Assembly (NCBI GenBank): GCA_036278915.1
Contig: DASUKB010000001.1
Coordinates: forward strand, 91,892 to 155,891
Length of the DNA stretch: 64,000 nt
Origin: Patescibacteria group bacterium
GTDB lineage: Bacteria; Patescibacteriota; Doudnabacteria; UBA920; O2-02-FULL-48-8
Direction of reading: 5' to 3'
A program made the translations under genes and the position numbers. Shown here piece by piece: positions 43,245 to 63,682 of the stretch (position 1 is the first letter of the stretch; every line of letters begins with the position of its first letter). The notes under the pieces were generated by a model. That model was not told the origin of the DNA and ran no database searches. It saw only the letters and a program-made list of their open reading frames with translations.

Positions 43245-43994
43245 ATGGACACACAAAATCCGGGCCAAATGCCCGCAAGCAGTCCCGAGACACCCAATCC
43301 GGAGCCTGCAAAAAATTGGTTTGCAGCTCACAAGGCTCTCGTGATTATAATTGTGGTCGCGGTTCTTGCCGCCGCAGGAGCGTCTGCGTACTTTATCATG
43401 ACTAGCAAGGTTAGTCCTATAGCTCTGCAACCAGTGGTGCACCAGGAGAAAGCAGACACGTCTGCGAAAGTTTATACAAATTCCAAATATGGTTTTGAAT
43501 TTTCGTATCCCGGAAAGTATTTCCTAGCAAGTCCATTGATTGAACAACCGAACGGCCAGCTGGATTTCGATGCCCAGACAAAACAGCTTAACAGCGGGCT
43601 TCCGGAAAATGCGGAATTTCTTAATGTAGAAACTCAAGATTACGCAGAATTGAAGCCTGCCGTCTCGTGTAGCGCCGGTGAATTATGTGAAGCATCCCAA
43701 ACTGATTTTAATTCCAATATTAAGATTATAAATAACGCACAATTGGGTGATACGGTTAATATGCAACAAATTAACGGTACGGTGGTTTCGATTGGTGGCC
43801 AGAAGGGGTTGCGTACTAACTATTTCAATCCCACTGGCGGAGATTGGGATTTAGCAGTCATCCTATATGATAAAAACAAAAATCAGATTTGGCTGAGCTT
43901 TAGCATCCCAGCGGCTAGCAAAGAAGAAGCCTTAGCCAGTGCGGAATACAAAGATATGACTTCGATAATTTCCACCTTCAAATTCACAAACTAA
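43245..43994 (+). CDS. Hypothetical signal-anchored/secreted protein
   Basis: Pro-rich N-terminus, then the TM segment ALVIIIVVAVLAAAGASAYFIM. No family recognised. Confidence 0.4.
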   Translation: MDTQNPGQMPASSPETPNPEPAKNWFAAHKALVIIIVVAVLAAAGASAYFIMTSKVSPIALQPVVHQEKADTSAKVYTNSKYGFEFSYPGKYFLASPLIEQPNGQLDFDAQTKQLNSGLPENAEFLNVETQDYAELKPAVSCSAGELCEASQTDFNSNIKIINNAQLGDTVNMQQINGTVVSIGGQKGLRTNYFNPTGGDWDLAVILYDKNKNQIWLSFSIPAASKEEALASAEYKDMTSIISTFKFTN

Positions 43995-47616: not shown

Positions 47617-48330
47617 ATGAAAAACTATATTAAAACTATTATTCTGGTCGTGGTGCTTTTGGCAGTGGGGTATTTCCTCTTGCCTTATGTCAAAAATTAT
47701 CCCAAACATCCAACTCCAAGCTCGCAGACCTCCAGCACCTCAGGCACCAATTCGTCATCTTCTAATTCTTCAAGCTCTACAAGTTCCAGCAATGGCATTC
47801 AGACTTTTACGTCCAGCAATTTGGGCGTAAGTTTTCAGTATAATCCGGATCAGGACGGCGACGGCACAGCTGACACCACAGCAGCCGAATCGGGCGACAA
47901 GGTTTATGTTTACTACACTGCAAGCCCGATGGAGCAGGGACAATGGGTTGAGAAATTTACGAAGGATCCGTCCATGAGTTTGGCCGATGCGATTCAAAAA
48001 CAATTCTTGTCCGGCGTCTCAAGCACTGATTGCTTCGTTGCGGATATGGATTCTTTCTACACCCAGTATGGCGCGCAGGCGCCGGCTTCACCGCAGAACT
48101 TTGAGCGGGACATAATTGCGTATCCGTTTCCCACAGACCCCAACCAGCCGTTTGATGCCAATGCCAGCAAATGCCCGGCCACATACAGCCTAAGCAGCAG
48201 CGGATTGAGCTACTTTGCGATGGACAAAAATCACCCGGATCAATACTATTTCTTCAACATAGGGCAGTACGCGATAACTGCCGACACACAAGGTCAGCTG
48301 GCTTGGCAGGACACATTTGAGATAAAATAA
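47617..48330 (+). CDS. Hypothetical secreted protein with Ser-rich low-complexity linker
   Basis: Signal/TM segment IILVVVLLAVGYFLL, then SSTSGTNSSSSNSSSSTSSSNG, then a globular C-terminal domain. Confidence 0.4.
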   Translation: MKNYIKTIILVVVLLAVGYFLLPYVKNYPKHPTPSSQTSSTSGTNSSSSNSSSSTSSSNGIQTFTSSNLGVSFQYNPDQDGDGTADTTAAESGDKVYVYYTASPMEQGQWVEKFTKDPSMSLADAIQKQFLSGVSSTDCFVADMDSFYTQYGAQAPASPQNFERDIIAYPFPTDPNQPFDANASKCPATYSLSSSGLSYFAMDKNHPDQYYFFNIGQYAITADTQGQLAWQDTFEIK

Positions 48331-50756: not shown

Positions 50757-51170
50757 ATGCCTACCATAAATCAGCTTGTCCGACACGGACGCACCAAATC
50801 AGTATATAAATCAAAGTCTCCAGCCCTGGAGCGCGTTTATAATTCGCTCAAAGGCGAGAACTACAACGTCGCCAAAGGTTCGCCGTTTAAGCGCGGCGTC
50901 TGTATAAAAGTCTCTACTATGACGCCGAAGAAGCCAAACTCGGCTATCCGCAAATTCGCCCGTGTGCGCTTGAGCAACGGCATGGAAGTCAACGCCTACA
51001 TCCCAGGGATAGGCCACAACTTGCAGGAGCACAGCGTGGTTATGATCCGCGGCGGCCGCGTGAAAGATTTGCCAGGTATGCGCTACCACATCGTAAGAGG
51101 CAAACTTGATGCCGGCGGAGTAGAAGGAAGAAAGAGATCAAGATCTAAATACGGAGCAAAGAAAAGTTAA
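50757..51170 (+). CDS. rpsL: 30S ribosomal protein S12
   Basis: [12 protein letters not shown]...[18 protein letters not shown]. The ORF-track start at 50670 is an upstream extension. Confidence 0.95.
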
Positions 51171-51245: not shown

Positions 51246-51764
51246 ATGCCACGCAAAGCCAGATCATATGACCGCCATCCAGTGGATGCGGATCACAAAT
51301 ACAACAGCGTTAAGCTGTCTAAGTTTATAAACTACGTTATGACTCGCGGCAAAAAGACTGTTGCCGCTAAAGTCGTGTACGATGCCTTGGATATAATCGC
51401 AAAAGGAGCAACTCCCGCCGAAGGCGGATCCGCCTCCGGCGGAAAAGCCGACCCAAAGGTTTTGTTTGAACAGGCGGTACGGAATGTCTCGCCGATTTTG
51501 GAAGTTAAAGGCCGCCGCATCGGCGGTGCCAACTACCAGGTGCCTATGGAAGTTCAGGAGCCGCGCAAAACTACGCTTGGTATGAAATGGATTATAGACG
51601 CGGCCCGCGCCAAAAAGGGAAAACCCATGGCGGAAAAATTGGCATCCGAACTTATGGAAGCCTACAACAAAACCGGTTCGGCCATCAAAAAGCGCGAAGA
51701 CGTACACAAAATGGCTGAAGCCAACAAGGCTTTTGCGCATTTCGCAAGATTCCAGAGACGGTAG
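51246..51764 (+). CDS. rpsG: 30S ribosomal protein S7
   Basis: [22 protein letters not shown]...; carries an internal insertion ([17 protein letters not shown]). Confidence 0.9.
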
Positions 51765-51872
51765 ATCGCTCGGTCAGAAATTTTTTGTCGGACACGCCCG
51801 CTTAGGGCCGGCTAAAGTGCTCAACATTGGAAGGTTTCGCACGTTGTCCTCCAAAAAATTTCTGCCCTCGCT
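51765..51872 (+). repeat. Conserved ~105-nt structured intergenic element, copy 3 (rpsG-fusA spacer)
   Basis: Aligns with the other two copies. It carries the GAC:GTC to AAC:GTT compensatory change in the central helix and fills the usually short rpsG-fusA spacer. Confidence 0.6.
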
Positions 51873-51893
51873 AATAAACAATTTTAAAATTAC

Positions 51894-54026
51894 ATGGCCA
51901 GAGAATACTCATTAGAAAAAACCAGGAATATCGGAATTATTGCCCATATCGACGCCGGTAAGACCACGACTACCGAGTCTATTTTGTTTTACACGGGAAA
52001 AATTCACAAGATCGGCGAAGTCCACGAAGGCAACACGGCTATGGACTGGATGGAACAGGAACGCGAGCGCGGCATTACTATTACCGCGGCGGCCACGACT
52101 TCGTTTTGGTCCACCTCATTACAAAACGGCGGGGCTTCGCCTGACACACACCGCATAAACATCATAGATACTCCCGGCCACGTGGACTTTACGGTGGAAG
52201 TGGAACGGTCTTTGCGCGTGCTCGATGGCGCGATCGTAGTATTTGACGGCAAAATGGGTGTGGAGCCGCAGTCGGAGACCGTCTGGCGGCAGGCGGATAA
52301 ATATTCCGTGCCCCGTATGTGCTTTATAAATAAAATCAACCAAACTGGCGGGGATTTTTACAAGTCTCTGGATGCCATCCATAAGCGCTTGTCACCGAAC
52401 GCCTTTCCAATCCAACTTCCTATCGGATTTGAAAAAGACATCGTCGGCATTGTGGATTTGGTGAAGATGAAATCCTACACCTACAAAGAACATAAAGATA
52501 AGGGATTCACCGAGGGCGAAGTGCCGGCGGACATGGCTGAAAAAACAAAAGAGTATCGCATCAAACTCGTGGAAAAAGTCGTGGAAACCGATGACGCGCT
52601 TATGGAAAAATATCTGGCGGGACAGGAAATTTCAAATGACGAACTTATGAAAGCTATCCGCGCCGCAACCCTCACCGGCAAATTTTACCCGGTGCTGGGA
52701 GGTGATGGTCGGGGACTTATCGTAACCACGCTTCTGGACGGGGTAGTAAATTATTTGCCATCACCGTTGGACAAGCCTCCGGTTAAAGCCGTTGACATCA
52801 AAACCGGCGAGGAAATTTTACTGACGCCCAAAGACAGCGACAAATTTGTTGCGCTGGCGTTTAAGATTGCCACTGACCCATTTGTCGGGAAACTGGCGTT
52901 CTTCCGTGTTTACACAGGCACTCTTTCAGCCGGGTCATACATCCTCAACACTCGCTCTGGTAACAAGGAGCGTGTTGGACGATTGGTGCGTCTGCACGCG
53001 GACTCGCGCGAAGAAGTTAAGGAAGTTTATTCCGGAGATATTGCCGCACTAGTCGGGCCGAAAGATACTTTCACTGGCGACACGCTTTGCGACGCGGAGC
53101 ATCCGATCCAGCTAGAATCCATTAAATTTCCGGAGCCGGTTATTTCTGTCGCAATTGAGCCTAAGACCAAAGCCGACCAGGAAAAAATGGGCTTGGCTTT
53201 GCAGAAATTGGCGGAAGAAGATCCAACTTTCCGCGTCTCAACTGATGAGGAAGTCCAACAGACACTTATATCCGGAATGGGCGAATTGCATTTGGAAATT
53301 CTGGTGGATCGTATGAAACGAGAATTTAAAGTGGAAGCTAACGTCGGTAAACCGCAAGTGGCGTACAAAGAAACGATCAAGGGAAAATCCGAAGCCGAAG
53401 GCAAATACATCCGTCAGACCGGCGGCCGCGGCCAATATGGCCATGTTTATATTCGCATTGAACCGCAGGATGATCCCACCAAAGGCAATGAGTTTGTAAA
53501 CGAAATCGTGGGCGGTGTAATTCCCAAAGAATACATCAAACCGGTCGAAAAAGGCATTGCCGAAGCTGAAGACCGCGGGGTTATCGCAGGATTTCCGGTG
53601 CTCAATATCAAAACAACATTGTACGATGGTTCTTACCACGAAGTTGACTCCTCCGAAATCGCGTTTAAAATCGCAGGCTCAATGGCTTTCCAGGATGCAG
53701 TTAAAAAAGCCAACCCGATACTGCTGGAGCCGATTATGAAAGTTGAGGTCACAACTCCGGAGTCGTCCATGGGCGACGTTATTGGCGACCTTAACGCCAA
53801 GCGCGGCAAGATTTTGGAAATGACAGACCGCGGCAATCTCAAAATTATAGACGCAGAAGTGCCTTTGGCTGAAATGTTTGGCTACGCTACGCAGATTCGA
53901 TCCATGTCGCAAGGCCAGGCTTCCTATACCATGGAATTTCACCATTACGAAGAAGTTCCGCGCAATGTGGCGGAAAAAATCATTGGCGAGTCAGGTAAGA
54001 TCCGCGTCGGACAAGTTGGGAAATAA
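51894..54026 (+). CDS. fusA: Elongation factor G
   Basis: [23 protein letters not shown] and the domain IV/V motifs. 710 aa. Terminator at 54038-54062. Confidence 0.95.
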
Positions 54027-54037
54027 TTGTTAAATTA

Positions 54038-54062
54038 TCCCCGCGAAAGCGGGGATTTTTTT
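54038..54062 (+). terminator. Intrinsic terminator after fusA
   Basis: TCCCCGC-gaaa-GCGGGGA plus TTTTTTT. Confidence 0.75.
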
Positions 54063-54125: not shown

Positions 54126-54692
54126 CTAACGAAAAATTTCCGGGATTTCTATTGAGGAGATTGTTTCGCTTATAAATTTCGCTGCCTCTTGGACGGATTT
54201 TTCCAAGCCGCCGGGCTTAAAAGAATTTTTGATTACCAAATCAAATTGCAGATTGGATTGTTTTTCGCGTTCGTCATCCGCCTTTTCGCGCACCAGACTG
54301 CGGTCCAATTCCCAATCGCGGTCCGGAATAACTTTTATAAGCACCAGATGATAACCTTGAGCTCGCAGTGTGGGCACAGTGCTTTCTATGATTGCAAATA
54401 TGCCACAGTGGGAAATCAAACATTCGTCCAGGTTTTGTCTTTCGTATATGTAATGGTTGCCGCTATAGATTTCGTGGCTCAAGAATCCTGCTTGGTTTTG
54501 CCGGTCTTGCGCATACGCTTCGTCCACAAATTTATAAAAAAGATCATCGTAGTCGTCGCGTCTGGGCCTGGTGGACGTGGATTTAATAATTTGTAGGTGC
54601 GGTAAAAAGTTCAGAAGCTCTATCATAATGGTGGTTTTGCCAGAGCCGGATGCGCCTATAAACGCAAAAATTATATGTTTTTGGTTAGTCAT
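54126..54692 (-). CDS. Guanylate-kinase-like P-loop NTPase
   Basis: Walker A GASGSGKTT. STSTRPRRDDYDDLFYKFVDEAY...YSGNHY resembles the GMP-binding region of Gmk. Inserted between fusA and tuf on the opposite strand. Confidence 0.5.
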   Translation of the reverse strand: MTNQKHIIFAFIGASGSGKTTIMIELLNFLPHLQIIKSTSTRPRRDDYDDLFYKFVDEAYAQDRQNQAGFLSHEIYSGNHYIYERQNLDECLISHCGIFAIIESTVPTLRAQGYHLVLIKVIPDRDWELDRSLVREKADDEREKQSNLQFDLVIKNSFKPGGLEKSVQEAAKFISETISSIEIPEIFR

Positions 54693-54774
54693 ATAATATT
54701 TATAGCAAAAAGAAAACGGCTCGGATAGCTCGAGCCGTTAATAACGGCGAGTCCGGTCGGATTCGCTGTATTCG

Positions 54775-54963
54775 TTAGATCTTCTGGCCGAATTTTGCCA
54801 GGTACTTCTGGCGGCAATCACTGCAACCGCCGCGCAGATCACGGACGTGAGTGACGGCCCTGCCAGGAAGCACTGGCTTGAGGCCGTAGTAGCGCGGGCA
54901 CTTCTCGGTGAACTTCACGAGAGCAGTAAGCTTCGCGGAATTCAGGCCAGGCTCGTGATCCAA
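54775..54963 (-). CDS. Small hypothetical protein (possibly longer, non-canonical start) in GC-rich insert
   Basis: The open frame extends upstream to ~55080 without an ATG/GTG. The Cys-containing C-terminus reads CPRYYGL...GGCSDC. Confidence 0.2.
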   Translation of the reverse strand: MDHEPGLNSAKLTALVKFTEKCPRYYGLKPVLPGRAVTHVRDLRGGCSDCRQKYLAKFGQKI

Positions 54964-55104
54964 GACAGCGTCTTCGTCCTTTTTGTAGGTCTCCTGTTCC
55001 TGCTGTTTCAGGATTTCCAGGTAGACATTACTACTTTGGCTCCGAAAGTTCTTGAGCCTCGTACGAGCACTGCTGATATCAGTTTGTCTCGACAGATGAT
55101 CCTC

Positions 55105-55305
55105 CTATTGGAATGAAAGCCGGGCAGCGTACCCGAGGGCTGCTGCTGTGATCAGTAGGGAGAAGTAGAACGCCCTGATGATCAATCGGGGATGTTGAAC
55201 GTAGAAGTCGCGGCCAGCGGTCCCCAGGTGTGCCATGTGATAAAGCACAAATCCCAAAAGGATCATGACCGAGGCTGGGATAACGATAAGACAAACCCTT
55301 GCCAT
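55105..55305 (-). CDS. Small 2-TM hypothetical protein in GC-rich insert
   Basis: 66 aa with a GGAGGG SD. GC-rich relative to the flanks. Confidence 0.3.
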   Translation of the reverse strand: MARVCLIVIPASVMILLGFVLYHMAHLGTAGRDFYVQHPRLIIRAFYFSLLITAAALGYAARLSFQ

Positions 55306-55626
55306 AAACCCTCCGGTCCTACTTGTTTAAATAATTATGTTACCACCTGGAGGATTAGTCAAACGAGTATTCCGACAAGACTTTATCCACAACCCTTGAG
55401 GGACTTTACAATGTTAGTCAAATGCTTTATAATCTTAAAGCGTTTCAAATTAATTTATTAGCAGTTTTAAGCTCGGCGTCATCCTGATCTTGGCCAAATA
55501 CCAAAGTCGATAGGGTATTGGGCTAAGGATTCGGGAAGACTGGATACCACTTAGAGACTGCTTAAAAGGGATTTAGCCCTTCACTCCAAGGTTGAGAGAG
55601 GTTATAGTCCTGAAAGGAAGAAGCAA

Positions 55627-56814
55627 ATGGCGGAAAAATTTGACCGTTCCAAGCCGCACATCAACGTCGGTACCATTGGTCACGTCGACCATGGCAAAAC
55701 CACGCTGACTGCAGCCATCACCACTGTCTTGTCCAAGCAAGGCAAAGCCAAAGCGCGCGCTTATGATTCCATCGACAACGCTCCGGAAGAAAAGGCTCGC
55801 GGCATCACTATTAACACCTCCCACGCCGAATACGAAACCGACAAGCGTCACTACGCTCACGTCGACTGCCCGGGTCATGCTGACTATGTCAAAAACATGA
55901 TCACTGGCGCGGCCCAAATGGATGGTGCGATTTTGGTTGTGTCTGCAGCTGACGGCCCAATGCCCCAGACCCGCGAGCACATCTTGCTGGCCAAACAGGT
56001 CGGCGTGCCATACATTGTCGTTTATATGAACAAAGTGGATATGGTGGACGACAAAGAACTTCTGGACCTCGTGGAAGAGGAAATTCGCGATCTTTTGACC
56101 AAAAATGGATTTCCAGGAAAAGATACGCCTATCATCCGCGGTTCGGCATTGAAGGCTTTGGAAGGCGATACGTCAGAAATCGGCGAACCGTCGATCCTCA
56201 AGCTCGTGGACGCACTTGATACATACATCCCAGAACCAAAGCGCGAAACCGACAAGCCATTCCTCATGCCTATCGAAGACATTTTCTCAATTGAAGGCCG
56301 CGGCACCGTAGTTACCGGCCGTATTGAACGCGGTATCATCAAAGTCGGCGAAGAAATCGAAATTGTCGGCATCCGCCCAACCGTCAAGACTGTCGTCACT
56401 GGAATTGAAATGTTCAACAAGCAGTTGGATGAAGGTCGGGCTGGCGACAATGCAGGCATTCTGCTCCGCGGTACCAAGAAAGACGAAGTTGAACGCGGCC
56501 AGGTTTTGTGCAAGCCGGGTTCTGTGACCCCGCACACCGAATTTGACGCCGAAGTCTACATCCTCACCAAAGAAGAGGGCGGACGACACACCCCGTTCTT
56601 TAAAGGTTACAAGCCGCAGTTCTACATCCGTACCACAGACGTGACCGGAGAAGTTGAATTGCCAGCCGGCCAGGAAATGGTTATGCCGGGCGATACGGTA
56701 AGCTTGAAGATTAAACTCATCACCCCAGTAGCTATGGAAGACAAGATGCGGTTTGCTATCCGCGAAGGCGGACACACCGTGGGCGCGGGCGTGGTGCTCA
56801 AGATTACAAAATAA
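55627..56814 (+). CDS. tuf: Elongation factor Tu
   Basis: [27 protein letters not shown]. 395 aa. Confidence 0.97.
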
Positions 56815-57054
56815 GCCAAAAGCTACTTATCGAAAGATAGGTAGCTTTTTGTGCGAACTGAAAGATTTCTGGGCGGGTCCCCGCAAATTTGCCACCCGCC
56901 TGAAATTGGCCGTCGCAGTCCACGGGCTAGTTTGCCGCCAGGGCTCGCTCCAAGTCCTGAACCGCACCACCTAAAATGCTCTTGACTTTAGCTCCCAAAT
57001 TCGCTAATATATCCAAGTTGCTTAATAATTAGTCGTTATTTATTTACCAATTGA

Positions 57055-57378
57055 ATGCCCGCTGAAAAGACAGAAACTGCCAGAATCCGGATTAAGATTC
57101 GAGCCTATGACCACAAACTCATAGACCAGTCCGCCCGATCTATAGTAGATACTGCCAAACGCACAGGCGCCGAAGTTATAGGCCCAGTGCCGCTGCCTAC
57201 TGAAAAATCCAAGGTTACCGTGAATCGCTCGACATTCGTGCACAAGAATGCCAGAGAGCAGTTTGAAATGCGCATTCATAAGCGGCTTATCGATATTGCC
57301 TCTCCCACACCCAAAACAATTGATGCGCTTTCAAACCTCAATTTGCCAGCAGGCGTGGATATAGAGATTAAAATGTAA
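57055..57378 (+). CDS. rpsJ: 30S ribosomal protein S10
   Basis: [39 protein letters not shown]. Confidence 0.95.
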
Positions 57379-57430
57379 ACATGGTTTAGATTGGATTGAT
57401 CCCCGAGGATATCGCCAGTCACACGAAGCA

Positions 57431-57475
57431 CCATTCAGGCTTCTTGTTTCCGGGATCCTGAATGGTTTTTTGTTT
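57431..57475 (+). promoter_or_regulatory. Terminator-like hairpin between rpsJ and rplC (possible S10-operon attenuator)
   Basis: CCATTCAGG...CCTGAATGG 9-bp stem, then TTTTTTGTTT. Confidence 0.4.
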
Positions 57476-57488
57476 AAAGAAGTATCAA

Positions 57489-58097
57489 ATGTCAAAATTT
57501 CTGATGGCTGAAAAACTGCATATGTCGCAAATCTTTACCCCCGACGGTAAGGTTGTTCCGGTCACAATTCTTAAGGCTTCACCAAACAAGGTAACTCTTG
57601 TACGAAGTTTGGAAAAAGACAAGTATCAGGCAGTGCAGGTCGGATTTGGGCGCCGCAAAAAAGCTACCAAAGCTTTAGCTGGCCACACTAAGGAGCTTGG
57701 CAAATTTGCGCACCTTTCCGAATTCCGCGTGGATGATTCTTCCAAATTCAGCCGCGGCCAGGAGATTACAGTGGCGACATTTGCTGTGGGTGATAAGGTT
57801 AAAGTAACCGGCGAAATGAAAGGCCGGGGATTTGCCGGACCGATTAAGCGCCACGGTTTCCACGGAGCACCGGCTTCGCACGGTCACGATCACCCGCGAG
57901 CCGTGGGAGCAATCGGCGGCAGGTTTCCGCAGCACGTGCGCAAAGGCTTGCGCATGGCGGGGCACATGGCAGGTATTCGTACCGTTAAAAATTTGGAAGT
58001 CGTGGAAATAGACGCCAAGCGCAACCTCATAGCGGTCAAGGGCGCGGTGCCGGGCGCGCCGGGAAATGTTGTCAGGATACAGTTGTCCCTAAAGTAA
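57489..58097 (+). CDS. rplC: 50S ribosomal protein L3
   Basis: ...MSQIFTPDGKVVPVTIL...; the ATG at 57489 is preferred because the ORF-track start at 57462 lies inside the hairpin. Confidence 0.9.
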   Translation: MSKFLMAEKLHMSQIFTPDGKVVPVTILKASPNKVTLVRSLEKDKYQAVQVGFGRRKKATKALAGHTKELGKFAHLSEFRVDDSSKFSRGQEITVATFAVGDKVKVTGEMKGRGFAGPIKRHGFHGAPASHGHDHPRAVGAIGGRFPQHVRKGLRMAGHMAGIRTVKNLEVVEIDAKRNLIAVKGAVPGAPGNVVRIQLSLK

Positions 58098-58774
58098 TGT
58101 TTATAATTGCGCATCGCGGGGCTTCGGGACTTGAACCTGAAAACACCCTCCGTTCCTTCAAAAAAGCCGAAGAACTCGGCGCCGATCTCATCGAACTCGA
58201 TGTGCGAATTTCCAAAGACGGTGAATTGGTCATAAGCCACGATGCTGATATGTTGCGGCTGTTTGGTGATCCAAGATTGCTCAAACAACTTCCGCTTTCC
58301 GAGATCAAGCGAATAAGCGCTTTGCACAACCGGGAAATCCCAACACTTGCGGACGTAATTGCAAACGTAAATCGCGATTTGAATATTCATATCAAAAATC
58401 ACGGTATCGAGCGCCAAGTCTTGGAAGCTATAAAAAGTTTTCCGCACAGGGTCCTGATTTCCTCCACCTTTCCAGGGGTGCTTAAGAAGATCAGAGCTTT
58501 GGATGGAAAAATTGATCTGGGATTGATTATCGGACGAGGGGAACTCCACCTTTTGCCGGTTGCCAATTTCCTGACCCGAAATATCGGACTTTACTCAATT
58601 CATCCAAAAGCCACAATTATATCTTTGCCTATCGTAAAATTATTTAAACTTTCCGGACGCAAGGTTAATGTGTGGACAGTGAATACAAAAGAAGAATTTA
58701 TAAGAATGCAACGCTTGGGCGTGGACGGCATTATCACCGACCACCCGGAGCTTATGAAAATTTATGGCAATTAG
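58097..58774 (+). CDS. Glycerophosphodiester phosphodiesterase (GDPD family) inserted in the S10 operon
   Basis: IIAHRGASGLEPENTLRSFKKAEELGADLIELDVRISKDGELVISHD. Overlaps the rplC stop by 1 nt (TAATG) and rplD by 11 nt. Confidence 0.8.
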   Translation: MFIIAHRGASGLEPENTLRSFKKAEELGADLIELDVRISKDGELVISHDADMLRLFGDPRLLKQLPLSEIKRISALHNREIPTLADVIANVNRDLNIHIKNHGIERQVLEAIKSFPHRVLISSTFPGVLKKIRALDGKIDLGLIIGRGELHLLPVANFLTRNIGLYSIHPKATIISLPIVKLFKLSGRKVNVWTVNTKEEFIRMQRLGVDGIITDHPELMKIYGN

Positions 58775-59411
58775 AACCGCAGTCTACAATCAATCCGGAG
58801 AAAAGATTTCCGAGTTGGATCTCAATCCCAAAATTTTTGGTTTGGAAGATTTGGATGCGCATTTGGTGCATACTGCCGCAGTAGCGCAAGCCACCAATGC
58901 CCGCCATTCTATAGCCCACACCAAAAATCGCGGCGAAGTTGCCGGTTCCGGTAAAAAGCCTTGGAAACAGAAGGGTACCGGACGCGCACGCGCCGGTTCG
59001 GTTCGTTCCCCAATTTGGCGCCACGGCGGCATCACATTTGGCCCGAGAAATCAGGCCGACTGGTCCGTGAAGTTAAATCGCAGCGCATTCCGCAAGGCTC
59101 TATTTACGATTCTGACCGACAAGATGCGTGACAATAAATTAACTATTATTGATAAGCTGCCACAGGTTGAAAAAACTCGAGAATTGGCGGGGATTTTGGC
59201 TCGGATTGCCGCAAACGCCGGACTTGGCAAAAATTATTCATTGATTTTGGCTGTAAAGAATGCCGAGGTCGTGCGTGCGGGACGAAATCTTTCTCACGTG
59301 AAGATTATGTTTGCCGACCAGCTCAATATTTTGGACCTTGTGCAGTATGATCCAATTATCACTCAGGACGCGCTGGCTGTTATAGAGAAAATTTATTTAA
59401 AGAACTCCTAA
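58764..59411 (+). CDS. rplD: 50S ribosomal protein L4
   Basis: GSGKKPWKQKGTGRARAGSVRSPIWRHGG. Confidence 0.95.
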   Translation: MAIRTAVYNQSGEKISELDLNPKIFGLEDLDAHLVHTAAVAQATNARHSIAHTKNRGEVAGSGKKPWKQKGTGRARAGSVRSPIWRHGGITFGPRNQADWSVKLNRSAFRKALFTILTDKMRDNKLTIIDKLPQVEKTRELAGILARIAANAGLGKNYSLILAVKNAEVVRAGRNLSHVKIMFADQLNILDLVQYDPIITQDALAVIEKIYLKNS

Positions 59412-59415
59412 GAAT

Positions 59416-59856
59416 ATGAGTATTATAGACCGCATCAAAGGCAAGAAGGACGAAGCTCCGAAGAAAGCTTCCAAGAAATCCCCGAAAAAGCAAGAGGATG
59501 TTTTGTCCATGGTTCAGGAAGAAACTCCGACTGCGGAAAAAACCGAGACGGTGCTAAAAGAGGACACCGGCCGCGCGCATCATATCCTTTTAAATTATCA
59601 CTTGTCGGAAAAATCCAACCTTTTGTCTACTTTCGGTCGCTATGTGTTTAAGGTTTCGCGACATGCCAACAAGCTTGAGGTTCGAAAGGCGGTGGAAAAG
59701 GTATATGATGTACATGTCGTGAGCGTAAATATCGTTCGCAGCCGCGGCAAGGTTCGCAGATCGGGACGAGTTGTCGGCAAAACTTCCGACTGGAAAAAAG
59801 CTTATGTGACTCTTAAAGAAGGAGAAAAGATCAGCGGGTTAGCAGAAGGAGTATAA
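59416..59856 (+). CDS. rplW: 50S ribosomal protein L23 with ~50-aa Lys-rich N-terminal extension
   Basis: The core HILLNYHLSEKSN...KLEVRKAVEKVYDVHVVSVNI follows the extension KGKKDEAPKKASKKSPKKQ. Confidence 0.85.
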   Translation: MSIIDRIKGKKDEAPKKASKKSPKKQEDVLSMVQEETPTAEKTETVLKEDTGRAHHILLNYHLSEKSNLLSTFGRYVFKVSRHANKLEVRKAVEKVYDVHVVSVNIVRSRGKVRRSGRVVGKTSDWKKAYVTLKEGEKISGLAEGV

Positions 59857-59882
59857 ACAGTTTTTAATTACTAATTTCTAAG

Positions 59883-60713
59883 ATGGCTATCAAGATTTAC
59901 AAACCAACTTCAGCAGGACGCAGAATCCACTCGGTGACTGACTATTCCGTACTGACTAGAAACGCGAAGGCTCCGCGGAGTTTGGTTGTGTCCCAGAAGA
60001 ACTCTGCCGGACGAAACAACCAGGGCAAAATCACTATACGCCATCGCGGCGGCGGACATAAAACCCGCACACGGATAATTGATTTTATGCGCGAGAAGAT
60101 GAACATTCCGGCCCGTGTCCAGACTTTGGAATACGACCCGGGACGATCGGCTTTTATCTCGCTTTTGGCTTATAAAGATGGTGAGAAGCGCTATATTTTA
60201 GCACCCGACGGCACCAAAATCGGCGAAGTTTTGATGACTTCCGAACGCGCAGACATTAAACCCGGCAACCGGATGATGATGAAAAATATCCCGGTCGGCA
60301 CCAACATTCACAACATTGAACTGATCCAAGGCCGCGGCGGCCGCATGGCTCGCGCTGCTGGGACTTATGCTATAATTCAGTCTTCCGAAGGGGATTATGT
60401 GACTTTGAAGATGCCTTCAGGAGAAATTCGCAAAATTGCTTCGAATTGCTATGCTACTGTCGGTCAGGTTTCAAACACCGACTGGATGTACGTTCGTATC
60501 GGCAAAGCGGGCCGTACCAGGCATATGGGAATTCGCCCTACTGTGCGCGGCAAAGCCATGAACCCGATAGATCACCCGCATGGCGGCGGCGAAGGACACA
60601 ACCCGATTGGTTTGAAATATCCAAAAACGCCTTGGGGCAAACACGCATTGGGCGTGCGCACCCGCAACCCGAAGAAAGCTTCCGGCAAATTTATACTCCA
60701 GCGGAGAAAGTAA
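59883..60713 (+). CDS. rplB: 50S ribosomal protein L2
   Basis: GGGHKTRTR..., ...GRNPIDHPHGGGEG. Confidence 0.97.
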   Translation: MAIKIYKPTSAGRRIHSVTDYSVLTRNAKAPRSLVVSQKNSAGRNNQGKITIRHRGGGHKTRTRIIDFMREKMNIPARVQTLEYDPGRSAFISLLAYKDGEKRYILAPDGTKIGEVLMTSERADIKPGNRMMMKNIPVGTNIHNIELIQGRGGRMARAAGTYAIIQSSEGDYVTLKMPSGEIRKIASNCYATVGQVSNTDWMYVRIGKAGRTRHMGIRPTVRGKAMNPIDHPHGGGEGHNPIGLKYPKTPWGKHALGVRTRNPKKASGKFILQRRK

Positions 60714-60714
60714 T

Positions 60715-61179
60715 ATGAAATTTTTAATCTCAATTGTCGCTATATTGTTAGTTTCTGCCGCTTGCAACCAGCAGCCCACAGTAAGTCAGCAGAATAATTC
60801 AGATACGACTGCTGTTACTACAACGCAATCTACCCAAACATCTCAGCAATCTTCCGAGTCGTCCAACCAGACTAATGACCAAGGCCAAGCTTCTTCCGCC
60901 ACTGTCAGAATTGATTCACTTGCTCCAACTTCCGCAGCCATAGGAGCACAAGTTGCGGTCAAAGGCGCTGGATTTACCGAAACCGATAATACGATCAATG
61001 AAGGCGGTATAGAACTGACAGGAATTACTTCCAATGGCACCTCGCTTGTATTTACAGTTTCCAGCTGTCCGACCTACGCGCCAAGATGTCCAGGACATTT
61101 ATTGGCTGGGCCAATCCAAATATCTATTACAAACGCAAATGGCAATTCTAATTCAGTAACCCTCAACGTAACCGAATAA
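60715..61179 (+). CDS. Predicted lipoprotein with Ser/Thr/Gln-rich linker and IPT/TIG-like beta domain, inserted between rplB and rpsS
   Basis: Signal peptide with a lipobox-like LVSAAC. Low-complexity QQNNSDTTAVTTTQSTQTSQQSSESSNQTNDQ. A C-terminal beta-strand-rich domain. Confidence 0.55.
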   Translation: MKFLISIVAILLVSAACNQQPTVSQQNNSDTTAVTTTQSTQTSQQSSESSNQTNDQGQASSATVRIDSLAPTSAAIGAQVAVKGAGFTETDNTINEGGIELTGITSNGTSLVFTVSSCPTYAPRCPGHLLAGPIQISITNANGNSNSVTLNVTE

Positions 61180-61182
61180 TTT

Positions 61183-61506
61183 ATGTCACGATCACTTAAA
61201 AAAGGACCGTTTATAGATCCCAAGCTCTGGGAAAAAGTCAAAAATGCCAAACCGGGCATGAATACGCAGATTAAAACCTGGTCGCGCGATTCTACTATTT
61301 TCCCGGAAATGGTCGGCATGAGTTTTTTGGTGCATAACGGCAAGACTTTTATCACCGTCAGCTGCAGTGAAAATATGGTTGGACACAAGCTTGGTGAATT
61401 TTCCCCAACACGCAAATTTATCCGACACGGCGGCAAGATGGCCAAAGAAGAGGCTCAAGCCGCTGCGGCCAAGGAAGCTCCGGCTCCGGCAGCTCCCAAG
61501 AAATAA
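61183..61506 (+). CDS. rpsS: 30S ribosomal protein S19 with Ala/Lys-rich C-terminal extension
   Basis: [15 protein letters not shown]...HNGKTFITV...[13 protein letters not shown]. Confidence 0.95.
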
Positions 61507-61518
61507 TTTTTAATTTTT

Positions 61519-62133
61519 ATGGCACAAGAGGCAAGACTTAAAACCAATACCGCAACCTCCAAGACTGCTCCGATTGAAAAACAGCAGGTCAAGGCTTTTG
61601 CGCGTTTCATCCAGGTTTCGCCGCAGAAGATGCGGCTCTTGGCTGACATGGTGCGCAATACACCAGTGTCTTATGCTTTAGAACAGCTGGAATTTTCTCC
61701 TAAGAAAGCCTCCGTGCCAATGATTAAAGTTATAAATTCCGCGATTGCCAACGCCGTACACAACTTTAGTCTCCGTAAGGAAGATTTATTTATCAAAACC
61801 TTGACCGTGGATGGCGGACCGGTGCTCAAACGGTTCCGACCGCGCGCGCAGGGGCGTGCAGGTGCTATCCATAAACGAACCAGCCACATTAATGTTGTAT
61901 TGGAAGAGCGTGCTGGCGGCAAGCGCACAGCCAGATCAATATTTGCCCGTATCCGTCCAACCAAAACGACCCGCACACAGGAACACAAGCACGATCACGA
62001 TACGGAAGTTGAAGAAGGACAGACCTCCGCGCCAAAACAGCAGCACACTCAAGCTCCTAAAACTGGTGAAGCTAAAAAGACGCAGAAGATTTCACTCAAG
62101 CGAAGATTATTTAACCGCAAATCAGGACAATAG
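61519..62133 (+). CDS. rplV: 50S ribosomal protein L22 with ~85-aa C-terminal extension
   Basis: Core AKAFARFIQVSPQKMRLLADMVRN... plus a basic tail. Confidence 0.9.
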   Translation: MAQEARLKTNTATSKTAPIEKQQVKAFARFIQVSPQKMRLLADMVRNTPVSYALEQLEFSPKKASVPMIKVINSAIANAVHNFSLRKEDLFIKTLTVDGGPVLKRFRPRAQGRAGAIHKRTSHINVVLEERAGGKRTARSIFARIRPTKTTRTQEHKHDHDTEVEEGQTSAPKQQHTQAPKTGEAKKTQKISLKRRLFNRKSGQ

Positions 62134-62138
62134 ACTAT

Positions 62139-62801
62139 ATGGGACAGAAGGTTAACGCCAACAGCTTAAGACTTAACATTACCGATACTTGGAAATCCAG
62201 GTGGCTTTCCAAAACCAACTTTTCCAAATTTTTGGAAGAGGATACGCGAATCCGGGCATTCCTGTCAAAGGAACTTAAAAAAGCCGGACTGGTCAGAATT
62301 GATATCGAGCGTTTTGCCAATACTACTGCCATCACCATAAAGACTACAAAGCCAGGCATGATTATCGGCAAAGGCGGCGGCGGGATTGAAGACCTCAAGA
62401 AAAAGTTGGCCAAACACCTTGGTTACAAGCTAGATGTTAAGATCAATATTGAAGAAGTGCGGGACGTCAACTTGCAGGCACAGGTAATCGCCCAAGACAT
62501 AGCAGACCAGATCGAGCGCCGTATAGCATTTCGCCGCGCCATGAAGCAGTCTATTGAACGGATAATGGAAGCCGGTGCTTTGGGAGTGAAGATTGAATGC
62601 GCGGGCCGCCTGGGAGGCGCAGAAATTGCGCGCACTGAGCGGTTGTTTAAGGGAAAGCTGCCTTTGCATACCCTGCGGGCCAATATTGACTTTGCTCGGA
62701 TCACAGCCTACACCACTTATGGAACAATAGGTGTGAAGGTTTGGATCAATAAAGGCGAAGTGTTTGCACAAGGAAAGCCCGGAAAAATTTCTAATTCCTA
62801 A
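62139..62801 (+). CDS. rpsC: 30S ribosomal protein S3
   Basis: MGQKVNANSLRLNITDTWKSRW... and the KH-like and C-terminal domains. Confidence 0.97.
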   Translation: MGQKVNANSLRLNITDTWKSRWLSKTNFSKFLEEDTRIRAFLSKELKKAGLVRIDIERFANTTAITIKTTKPGMIIGKGGGGIEDLKKKLAKHLGYKLDVKINIEEVRDVNLQAQVIAQDIADQIERRIAFRRAMKQSIERIMEAGALGVKIECAGRLGGAEIARTERLFKGKLPLHTLRANIDFARITAYTTYGTIGVKVWINKGEVFAQGKPGKISNS

Positions 62802-62818
62802 TTTCTAATTGACCGATT

Positions 62819-63232
62819 ATGTTAATCCCCAAGAAAGTTAAACATCGCAAACAGCACCGCGGACGCTCGACTGGCAAAGCTATGTCCGGCAATTTCGTGG
62901 CGTTTGGGAGTTTCGGACTCAAGTCTATGGAAAATTCTTGGATTACAAGTCGGCAGATTGAAGCCGCGCGCCGCGCAATGACCCGCTATATTCAGCGTGG
63001 CGGCAAGGTTTGGATACGTATTTTTCCGGATAAATCTGTGACTTCGCACGGCAATGAATCTCCTATGGGCACCGGCAAAGGCGCGGTGGACCACTTTGTG
63101 GCTGTGGTGCAGAAAGGCCGGATACTATTTGAGATGGACGGCGTGACTGCCGAACAGGCCGCTGAAGCCATGCGATTAGCTTCTCACAAGCTGCCGGTGA
63201 AGACGAAATTTATACTCAGGAGTCAGCAATAA
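62819..63232 (+). CDS. rplP: 50S ribosomal protein L16
   Basis: [16 protein letters not shown]... Confidence 0.97.
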
Positions 63233-63233
63233 T

Positions 63234-63437
63234 ATGAAGATGAAAGAACTGCGAGCCCGAAACCAGAATGAACTGATTAAAACACTTTCGACCTTACGCG
63301 AACAGGTGCGCGACCTCAAATTTAAAGTCCATTCCAAGGAAGTTAAGGATTCCCACCGGCTGAAAAATGTCCGGCAGGATATTGCCAGAATTTTGACGAT
63401 TTTAAACGAGCCTGAATCGGACTCGCAGAAGGCATAA
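63234..63437 (+). CDS. rpmC: 50S ribosomal protein L29
   Basis: MKMKELRARNQNELIKTLSTLREQVRDLKFK. Confidence 0.9.
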   Translation: MKMKELRARNQNELIKTLSTLREQVRDLKFKVHSKEVKDSHRLKNVRQDIARILTILNEPESDSQKA

Positions 63438-63442
63438 ATTTT

Positions 63443-63682
63443 ATGAGCAAACGAACACTAATCGGCATAGTAGAATCCGCTAAAATGACCCAAACCGTGA
63501 TTGTGAAAGTGGGATCGATAAAAGTCCATCCCAAATACCACAAACGGTTCCAGGTCACGAAAAAATACCCGGCGCACAACGAACTTGCCGACATTAAAGC
63601 CGGAGACCGCGTGGAAATCGAGGAAAGCAAGCCGTACTCCAAAACAGTTAATTGGAACGTAGTTAAAAAGTTAGAAAGTTAA
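63443..63682 (+). CDS. rpsQ: 30S ribosomal protein S17
   Basis: [20 protein letters not shown]...HPKYHKR...HNE. Confidence 0.95.

Follow-up and report, generated by a model that had tools for sequence, protein, structure and literature searches.

Probable vertically inherited passenger genes at ribosomal protein operon junctions in a subclade of Candidatus Doudnabacteria

We analysed a 64,000-nt stretch of contig DASUKB010000001.1 (assembly GCA_036278915.1, positions 91,892 to 155,891 of the forward strand; hereafter the window), which carries the str and S10 ribosomal protein (r-protein) operons of a member of Candidatus Doudnabacteria (a group of very small bacteria that depend on a host, within the Candidate Phyla Radiation, CPR/Patescibacteria), as judged by its best L2 matches. 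The gene layout was established from the open reading frame (ORF) listing, Pfam scans and reading of the junction letters (Table 1). The str/S10 order is canonical, with rplW between rplD and rplB and with rplV, rpsC, rplP, rpmC and rpsQ following rpsS, and it is broken by three non-ribosomal genes: a guanylate kinase (Gmk)-like gene between fusA and tuf, a gene for a glycerophosphodiester phosphodiesterase (GDPD) between rplC and rplD, and a lipoprotein gene between rplB and rpsS. A preliminary description of this DNA had placed all three genes and the surrounding order correctly, and its gene identities also stood: the GDPD is clear, the IPT/TIG assignment of the lipoprotein follows from transitive homology and a predicted structure, and the kinase falls in the Gmk family. 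Taken together, the results below suggest that the inserts are probably vertically inherited passengers, sitting at intercistronic junctions of the str and S10 operons in one subclade of Doudnabacteria.

The layout is identical on a Logan contig from SRR25158533, and the same architecture recurs across ~17 independent contigs from different samples. These results bear on the possibility that chimeric joins at the junctions had been created by assembly or binning, which the preliminary description had itself named as a danger to its case. Binning errors do exist in the source data (locus L003 is filed as Verrucomicrobiia and L004 as Acidobacteriaceae), but the reading frames overlap at the junctions, the second assembly is identical and many independently assembled relatives look alike, so that an artefact is effectively refuted.

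Table 1. Positions of the genes and other features of the str/S10 region in the window.
Feature	Coordinates	Strand	Description
rpsL	50757-51170		
rpsG	51246-51764		
fusA (EF-G)	51894-54026	+	ORF; 83-93% identical to fusA of relatives
Intrinsic-terminator-like hairpin	54037-54056	+	8-bp stem with 6 GC pairs and TTTTTTT tail; immediately 3′ of fusA
Gmk-like gene (188 aa)	54126-54692	-	Pfam Guanylate_kin; convergent with fusA
G+C-richer stretch (~54% vs ~45% nearby)	54740-55380	-	Short minus-strand ORFs only; gene status uncertain
tuf promoter region	55383-55433	+	TTATCCACA at 55383-55391; TTTACA-17-TATAAT at 55405-55433
tuf 5′ leader RNA (~115 nt)	55455-55569	+	Long bulged hairpin; invariant internal-loop nucleotides GGCGUCA / GGACUGGAUACC
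tuf (EF-Tu)	55627-56814	+	ORF; 90-95% identical in relatives
rpsJ (S10)	57055-57378	+	Pfam Ribosomal_S10, on the identical Logan contig
rpsJ-rplC intercistronic RNA	57389-57473	+	5′ hairpin domain 57389-57420; terminator-type hairpin and U-run 57423-57473
rplC (L3)	57489-58097	+	Pfam Ribosomal_L3
GDPD gene (225 aa)	58097-58774	+	PF03009, E = 2.5e-43
rplD (L4)	58764-59411	+	Pfam Ribosomal_L4, E = 1.1e-51
rplB (L2)	59883-60713	+	Pfam, on the identical Logan contig
Lipoprotein gene (154 aa)	60715-61179	+	Between rplB and rpsS
rpsS (S19)	61183-61506	+	Pfam Ribosomal_S19, E = 5.6e-34

At the rplC/GDPD junction, the TAA stop codon of rplC shares bases with the ATG of the GDPD gene (TAATG), and the 3′ end of the GDPD gene overlaps the start of rplD by 11 nt. 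The lipoprotein gene begins 1 nt after the rplB stop codon and ends 3 nt before the rpsS ATG. Since native r-protein junctions in the same operon measure 1-26 nt, the insert junctions are equally tight. A 14-kb scan of the region detected no + strand terminator and no strong promoter-like site in the flanks of either S10 insert, with weak 9/12 promoter-like matches nearby; both inserts therefore have the marks of S10 cistrons, namely the same strand, abutting or overlapping codons and no intervening terminator or promoter. Shine-Dalgarno motifs are almost absent across the genes of the S10 operon (57055-63682), which have A/T-rich upstream regions instead, tuf with its AAAGGA being the exception. 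The GDPD gene had been described as translationally fused to its neighbours. The overlap holds, but the genes lie in different frames, and they are better called overlapping and putatively coupled. Co-transcription with the r-protein genes and translational coupling to them remain the natural reading of the tight junctions and of the missing + strand terminator and strong promoter. Most likely, the GDPD gene is transcribed with the genes for L3 and L4 and is translated by termination-reinitiation coupling, as suggested by its start at the rplC stop codon and its overlap with rplD.

The distribution of the GDPD insert was assessed in 80 loci around L2, one genome per species, with gaps measured by tblastn. 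A gene-sized rplC-rplD gap was found in five of the 80 (L002, L005, L007, L008 and L009), all of them close relatives of the window, and all five gaps contain a GDPD gene; no gene-sized insert was found at this junction in the other 75 sampled S10 operons, among them those of the sister Doudnabacteria clade, other CPR and Chloroflexi. A metagenome scan with the GDPD alignment yielded 15 further Doudnabacterial-type loci, 15/15 with the gene between rplC and rplD, and the 65 next-best GDPDs (37-44% identity) lie in non-ribosomal, unrelated contexts. The same layout is present on contigs that were reached via the kinase (L162/163, L165 and a 580-kb JGI contig). The rplC-rplD position holds in every clade locus with visible flanks, and no GDPD copy of this clade was found elsewhere. 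The preliminary description had called for such a synteny comparison and had allowed that the inserts might turn out to be universal in the phylum. Phylum-wide conservation is rejected, because the sister clade and other CPR lack a gene-sized rplC-rplD insert; the inserts are lineage-restricted and conserved only within the subclade, and among the 80 sampled loci L016 is the sole one outside it with a gene-sized insert between rplB and rpsS.

In a neighbour-joining species tree of eight concatenated r-proteins, calculated without support values, the GDPD carriers form one subclade. Nested within it are two members with a clean rplC-rplD junction, L004 (-2 nt) and L006 (+25 nt). The parsimonious reading of this pattern would be that the gene was captured once, long ago, was passed on vertically and was lost about twice. 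In the GDPD tree, a phylogeny that had been proposed earlier, P0001-P0064 stand apart from all other GDPDs. The tree names no donor: the nearest outgroup GDPDs, encoded next to gyrA in a bacterium or next to archaeal genes, are a bacterial/archaeal mix at 37-40% identity. A defence-system or phage origin of the inserts was also considered and rejected, as PADLOC returned nothing and PHROGs returned only phage guanylate kinases, as matches of the Gmk-like protein, and tail fibres with a GDPD domain. Inspection of the flanks of the inserts for repeats or target-site duplications gave just short matches that are likely due to chance.

The GDPD protein scores 149.4 bits on PF03009, where the cut-off is 23.6, and the match pairs residues 6-218 with profile positions 1-243 of 244. 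Its best PDB match is 2pz0 (E = 1.3e-31), and it aligns end to end with cytosolic GDPDs, 1o1z among them, while GlpQ-type entries match only across the first ~50 residues. The protein begins MFIIAHRG and there is no in-frame start codon upstream from which the ORF could be extended; therefore, it has no signal peptide. By these alignments, the protein is identified as a cytosolic GDPD of the UgpQ type and not a periplasmic one of the GlpQ type. The active-site motif of the family, HR(X)nEN(X)nEXD(X)nHD, includes two catalytic histidines (PMC4926365). It is intact in the window protein (H6 R7, E15 N16, E33 x D35, H48 D49), is invariant or nearly so in the clade, and aligns to H17/R18, E44/D46 and H59 of 2pz0, such that both catalytic histidines are present, as are two metal ligands out of three.

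Replacing any of the three metal ligands by alanine inactivates ttGDPD (PMC4926365). The third ligand, which is the Glu of an E-x-K motif in characterised enzymes, is His98 in the window (NIHIK; codon 98, 58388-58390). At position 98, roughly one third of the clade has His like the window protein, some members have Asp, and the deep branches and outgroups have Glu. Histidine can ligate a metal, and the change may reflect an altered metal preference. Deep-branching GDPDs of the clade also lack an insertion subdomain of ~25 residues. Amino-acid identity of the GDPDs is 50-76%, and synonymous sites are saturated in all pairs (dS > 1.6 or not computable), so that what is usable from dN/dS is an upper bound of ~0.2 and the comparison of dN with rplC and rplD; in this comparison the GDPD gene evolves at about the rate of rplD (dN 0.175 versus 0.196, window versus L163). 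Saturated synonymous sites, retained amino-acid identity and an rplD-like dN together argue for purifying selection on the GDPD. A function as a cytosolic glycerophosphodiesterase is well supported by homology, and family membership and the intact active site suggest that the enzyme most likely hydrolyses glycerophosphodiesters, possibly lysolipids, to sn-glycerol-3-phosphate. Given the position of the gene with those for L3 and L4, the replacement of Glu by His at the third ligand and the loss of the insertion subdomain in deep branches, one could imagine that a protein of GDPD fold was instead co-opted for a task in translation, for example the processing of RNA or ribosomes. We consider this very improbable, as the GDPD catalytic motif is fully conserved, the closest solved relatives are ordinary cytosolic GDPDs, no RNA-binding feature is present, and the protein is dispensable in L004 and L006.

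Upstream of the gene for L3 lies a structured intercistronic RNA that ends with U6, 16 nt before rplC. The 110-nt rpsJ-rplC spacer is 75-86% identical across the subclade, and the element has a minimum free energy of -35.8 kcal/mol (z = -3.4). On a plain MAFFT alignment of 10 sequences, RNAalifold predicted 31 pairs, 10 of them with compensatory changes; 96.1% of the alignment cells are paired, versus 87.5 +/- 1.0 in shuffles (0 of 500) and 37-62% in slid controls. As judged by eye, a hairpin and U-run stand right before rplC in all Doudnabacteria loci examined. Because the window has no room for a promoter between the hairpin and rplC, transcription from rplC onward must read through the hairpin, which makes the element a candidate attenuator. 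The rplC unit, which would extend to rpsQ and include both S10 inserts, lies downstream of this element, and whatever acts on the element would control the inserts as well.

The product of the gene between rplB and rpsS has a signal peptide and lipobox (..LLVSAAC) MKFLISIVAILLVSAAC, followed by a Q/S/T-rich linker and a single IPT/TIG domain. Its N-terminus fits the PROSITE-type lipobox rule and gives weak matches to NCBIfam lipoprotein N-terminal entries. The protein has no direct Pfam hit, even at E <= 10. However, the mature domain retrieved 459 remote homologues, with phmmer E-values down to 8e-28, and Pfam called the matched region TIG in nine of the 10 homologues that were checked; the members of this family are small secreted proteins that have one TIG domain and a conserved CPxxxPxCP cysteine pair. 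The single-sequence AlphaFold2 model of the domain was uninformative (pLDDT, the predicted local confidence score, of 50), and we therefore used the alignment-based model (pLDDT 77.6), which Foldseek matched to domain D of CGTase and to the IPT/TIG domains of EBF1 and NFAT with template-modelling (TM) scores of 0.6-0.76. On the strength of these homologues and the model, the mature domain is assigned to IPT/TIG (PF01833), an Ig-like E-set fold.

The rplB-rpsS slot is filled in the window, L002, L008/L092, L086, L162/163 and the JGI contig, and also in L016 of the sister clade, and it is empty in L005, L007, L009, L091, L094, L096 and L165. The slot genes of the relatives form one family, assigned by Pfam to PsbP_2 (PF18933) and with the pattern MKKxL..AAACNKQ...WKTYTN.KYGF.F.YP...STFKFTK; this call covers the slot genes with available sequence, which leaves aside only the 218-aa one on the JGI contig. 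The window protein shares with them only the signal peptide, lipobox and Q/S/T linker. At the nucleotide level, homology to the relatives extends from rplB to ~60768 and resumes from 61171, and so it takes in the signal-peptide codons and the last 9 nt of the gene. These breakpoints suggest that the mature domain of an ancestral slot gene was replaced, and the window lipoprotein thus appears to be a chimera of the ancestral slot signal peptide and a TIG domain. In L012, which has 95% L2 identity to L016, the rplB-rpsS junction is empty and a lipoprotein gene lies in the fusA-tuf gap instead; by eye, and for the N-terminal part only, its product has the same signal peptide, lipobox and Q-rich linker. 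The placement in L012 and L016 therefore indicates that such lipoprotein genes land in r-protein gaps repeatedly. Elsewhere in the window, 43245-43994 encodes a membrane-anchored S/T-rich protein that is a relative of the PsbP_2-like slot lipoproteins and ends ...STFKFTN, and 47617-48330 encodes a protein of like layout with a marginal PsbP_2 match (E = 0.059).

The fusA-tuf gap differs in kind from the two S10 junctions. In the window it spans 1.6 kb and contains a terminator, the kinase gene, ~0.6 kb of G+C-richer DNA, and the promoter and structured leader of tuf. No annotated genes lie in the ~0.9 kb between the kinase gene and tuf. Doudnabacteria as a rule have a fusA-tuf gap, which measures 0.4-5.5 kb and differs in its cargo, and the gap is a lineage-wide insertion hot spot. 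A co-directional gene of ~110-130 aa (MANLQDLINLAKADGGKFFVIDE...) with weak RelB-like similarity was found in 25 of the 34 CPR loci with a gap >300 bp (range L010-L078; for example L012:2964-3323), whereas neither the GDPD subclade nor the 64-kb window has it. By eye, sister-clade gaps also hold a HicB/HicA-like pair and GIY-YIG-like small genes (L012:3345-3780; L030:2845-3135; L014:3106-3573), a cargo that fits a gap collecting small selfish genes.

The kinase itself reaches 27.1 bits on Pfam Guanylate_kin, against a cut-off of 25.2, but only 44.4 bits on TIGR03263, and so does not reach the equivalog cut-off of 160.45. Its match to the phage guanylate kinase phrog_1815 (E = 2.5e-17) is better than those to bacterial Gmk models. 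PDB Gmk entries match at ~1e-6 with the S-T-T-R-x-x-R motif aligned, and the GASGSGKT P-loop, the STSTRPRR segment and Tyr and Glu positions align to Gmk structures. Conversely, the protein differs from Gmk at the residues aligned to the YG(T/S) segment, and also at the position of an acidic residue that we take to be a determinant of guanine specificity. From these alignments, the protein is classed as a divergent P-loop nucleoside-monophosphate kinase of the guanylate kinase family. Thirteen clusters of homologues (37-69% identity) lie in the same fusA-tuf gap, and the gene is confined to the closest relatives of the window, antisense in L162-164 and the JGI contig and co-directional in L165/166. 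Given the fusA terminator and the strong promoter-like site of tuf, the kinase gene is an independent unit that splits tuf from str and is not an operon member; fusA is the final gene of a truncated rpsL-rpsG-fusA transcription unit. As far as expression is concerned, the earlier statement that the kinase is inserted into the operon is therefore not borne out, as the gene is antisense, lies behind the fusA terminator and is not conserved in orientation (co-directional in L165).

The G+C-richer stretch between the kinase gene and the tuf promoter includes short ORFs at 54775-54963, with a CxxC motif, and at 55105-55305, with two hydrophobic helices. The ORFs of this stretch gave no family hits and no homologues in relatives, sharing only a weak CxxC with small ORFs there, and they were apparently not called by the depositor, since no locus tag is free between the P0122 and P0121 tags. 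Small HxxxCxxC ORFs also lie beside the kinase gene in relatives, without detectable homology. A minus-strand terminator-like hairpin is located at 54715-54739, just upstream of the kinase start. In addition, a 21-nt imperfect direct repeat (81%) surrounds the kinase gene, with one copy at the 3′ end of fusA (53985-54005) and the other at 54746-54766; the repeat may have been left by the insertion or have arisen by chance.

The TTTACA-17-TATAAT sequence upstream of tuf is the best promoter-like site of the 14-kb scan (11/12 matches). The TTATCCACA motif is a perfect match to the DnaA-box consensus, lies 14 nt upstream of the tuf -35 hexamer, and occurs once in the window. By eye, it is found at the same position in most relatives, exactly in four or more and with 1-2 mismatches in others, and it might be a transcription factor binding site. 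Over the 170 nt upstream of tuf, a block made up of the DnaA-box-like motif, promoter and leader, identity across the crown of the subclade is 71-82%, though synonymous sites are saturated. All 11 distinct homologues of the leader fold alone to the same shape (z = -2.8 to -6.1). The sequence of the outer helix varies by lineage and stays complementary, cognate strands pairing with a mean of -11.9 kcal/mol versus -6.9 kcal/mol for non-cognate ones. RNAalifold missed this helix on an out-of-register MAFFT alignment, and it was recovered by the single folds, the duplex test and an alignment based on a covariance model (CM). On the CM-based alignment, which is fitted to the model and so favours structure, 86% of the cells are paired versus 79.6 +/- 1.0 in shuffles and 28-53% in slid controls, and 13 pairs are changed on both sides versus 7.6 in shuffles (0 of 500). 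The CM matches only upstream of tuf, and the leader is restricted to the crown of the GDPD subclade. The leader may bind a protein, be cut by RNase III or stabilise the mRNA. Neither this leader nor the rpsJ-rplC element has an Rfam match, with nothing at E < 4 in focused scans and no match at either in the 14-kb scan at E <= 1.

Other features of the region were noted in passing. L23 (59416-59856) has a Lys-rich N-terminal extension of ~55 aa, L22 (61519-62133) a charged C-terminal extension of ~90 aa, and S19 (61183-61506) an Ala/Lys-rich tail. The unusually long rpsG-fusA spacer (51765-51893) folds as a long A/U-clamped branched hairpin, and its sole detectable homologue (L002:6596-6709, 71% over 121 nt) lies between the GDPD gene and rplD of L002, where that locus lacks the tight GDPD-rplD junction; the hairpin may be a small mobile palindromic intercistronic element. 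Among the sampled loci, L003, L004, L047, L058, L059 and L076 have Doudnabacteria- or CPR-like r-protein operons in metagenome-assembled genomes labelled Verrucomicrobiia, Acidobacteriaceae or Gammaproteobacteria, which is probably due to binning contamination or mislabelling.

Collectively, these results suggest the following history, which we regard as probable. The GDPD gene would have been captured once at the rplC-rplD junction and then kept as an integral S10 cistron without a promoter or terminator of its own. The rplB-rpsS junction would be a second slot, occupied by a lipoprotein gene in some members, in which the PsbP-like domain was exchanged for IPT/TIG behind a retained signal peptide in the lineage of the window. 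The fusA-tuf gap would be a separate case, a hot spot that uncouples tuf, with its own promoter and leader, from str and that holds an independently transcribed, phage-like kinase gene. As to why the inserts were retained, the most economical reading is that they are expressed constitutively and in step with ribosome synthesis, in a genome that is small and has few regulators.

It is also conceivable, if rather doubtful overall, that the junctions are simply tolerated landing sites, where genes hitch-hike neutrally, with no functional or regulatory link to translation and no selection for position. The varied and changing cargo of the fusA-tuf and tuf-rpsJ gaps, the patchy lipoprotein slot with its swapped cargo, the related lipoprotein genes at fusA-tuf in L012 and at rplB-rpsS in the 95%-identical L016, and the clean losses of the GDPD gene in L004 and L006 would all be expected on that account, and insertions of unrelated genes between such operons are documented in other phyla (PMC8046335). 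Against it, the GDPD gene has kept to a single junction while its proteins diverged to as little as 38% identity, its rate of evolution is about as low as that of L4, its 3′ end is interlocked with the site where translation of rplD starts, and no copy of its clade was found elsewhere. Neutral hitch-hiking accounts for the kinase and the lipoprotein better than for the GDPD.

Several observations weigh against the inherited-passenger history itself. The clean GDPD losses in L004/L006 and the patchy lipoprotein slot indicate that the inserts are dispensable. The junctions of relatives are mostly tight (-1 to +8 nt upstream of the GDPD gene; an overlap or <10 nt downstream), but 86-142 nt separate rplC from the GDPD gene in L005, L007 and L009, and ~60 nt precede rplD in L002; therefore, tight coupling is not universal. 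One gain and two losses is parsimony on a neighbour-joining tree that has no support values. The promoter and terminator scans used E. coli-type consensus sequences, which may not suit CPR, and co-transcription, coupling and read-through of the rpsJ-rplC hairpin are inferred from sequence. Finally, E, H and D all occur at the third metal-ligand position of the GDPDs in the clade, and the activity and substrate of the enzyme are predicted.

The preliminary description had gone further and proposed that the inserts are a functional set for the acquisition of host lipids, tied to growth rate through the r-protein operons. The tight junctions do fit co-expression with r-proteins, GDPD chemistry targets lipid head-group diesters and, in some relatives, also lysolipids (PMC4926365), and one preprint reports that CPR cannot make membrane lipids and are enriched in lysolipids (bioRxiv 10.1101/465690). 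However, the GDPD, being cytosolic, of the UgpQ type and without a signal peptide, would act on diesters that are already inside the cell, which speaks against a role as an acquisition factor. Nothing ties the lipoprotein to lipids either: its domain is a generic IPT/TIG, and in relatives the slot holds an unrelated PsbP-like protein or is empty. Moreover, the kinase gene runs antisense and has nothing to do with lipids, and the inserts differ from one another in phylogenetic distribution and so do not form one module. The N-terminal 60 residues of the ORFs of 110 aa or more that lie upstream of the str cluster (window positions 1-50600), read without a profile search, showed no evident lipid-uptake or acyltransferase genes. 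Growth-rate-coupled host-lipid acquisition is thus speculative, and we judge it unlikely.

A bolder variant is that Doudnabacteria, and perhaps other CPR, use r-protein junctions as expression slots for envelope and lipid-salvage functions, with lipoproteins recaptured at rplB-rpsS and fusA-tuf, domains swapped behind a fixed signal peptide and the GDPD wired into L4 translation, all under the new RNA elements. This we hold to be a long shot. If it were true, it would amount to cassette swapping of surface proteins, with envelope and lipid functions tied directly to the feedback control of ribosome synthesis.

On the preferred reading, that of inherited passengers, the locus has several uses. 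Few gene orders in bacteria are as conserved as that of S10, which serves as a phylogenetic marker set for CPR genomes; the GDPD insert is a clean synapomorphy, and hence a clade marker, for a Doudnabacteria subclade, and pipelines that assume contiguous r-protein blocks would be misled by it. The locus also offers a natural experiment in which a regulator-poor, reduced genome would express an enzyme by borrowing from the r-proteins their transcription, their coupling and probably their feedback control. How CPR deal with lipid head groups that they scavenge could be studied with the GDPD, which is a tractable protein. Both structured RNAs may be cis-regulators specific to the lineage, and, to our knowledge, essentially no RNA regulation has been characterised in this phylum.

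Non-ribosomal genes in r-protein operons are already known. The spc and alpha r-protein operons of most bacteria contain secY-adk-map, infA and rpoA. As with secY-adk-map, the Doudnabacterial case has non-ribosomal genes within r-protein units, including a membrane protein and a nucleoside-monophosphate kinase. Unlike secY-adk-map, which is ancient, near-universal and operon-distal, the Doudnabacterial inserts belong to one lineage and lie in the interior of S10; their cargo is a metabolic enzyme and a variable lipoprotein, and the kinase is antisense and outside the transcript. In the literature searched, we found no report of a GDPD or lipoprotein gene in the S10 operon, or of either RNA leader; the GDPD/lipoprotein case is previously undescribed and is a modest curiosity.

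Lineage-specific r-protein leaders are likewise known already, and the two Doudnabacterial elements are new candidates. The leader of the E. coli S10 operon is subject to L4-mediated attenuation. Like it, the rpsJ-rplC element places a terminator-type hairpin and U-run upstream of the genes for L3 and L4, with a conserved hairpin domain before them. Unlike it, the Doudnabacterial element follows rpsJ and precedes rplC, whereas the E. coli leader stands upstream of rpsJ; the two are not similar in sequence or by Rfam, and the Doudnabacterial element is a putative regulator.

At the protein level, the GDPD resembles E. coli UgpQ, the Thermoanaerobacter tengcongensis GDPD (2pz0) and the Thermotoga GDPD (1o1z) in length, active site and lack of a signal peptide, and differs from them in having His98 in place of Glu and in being encoded in an r-protein operon instead of among ugp or glp genes. 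The nearest families to the kinase are phrog_1815 and TIGR03263 Gmk, with which it appears to share the P-loop and a putative GMP-binding motif, with a score far under the Gmk equivalog cut-off.

A further parallel to the locus comes from Proteobacteria and Bacilli, in which unrelated genes have been inserted between operons, tending to precede operon separation (PMC8046335). In both settings a few unrelated genes invade the cluster, are inherited by descendants and are sometimes lost again. The events described there lie between operons or in the rpoBC operon, a pattern that the fusA-tuf gap fits; by contrast, the GDPD and lipoprotein genes sit inside the S10 operon, with codons that overlap or abut those of their neighbours, and the operon has remained unsplit.

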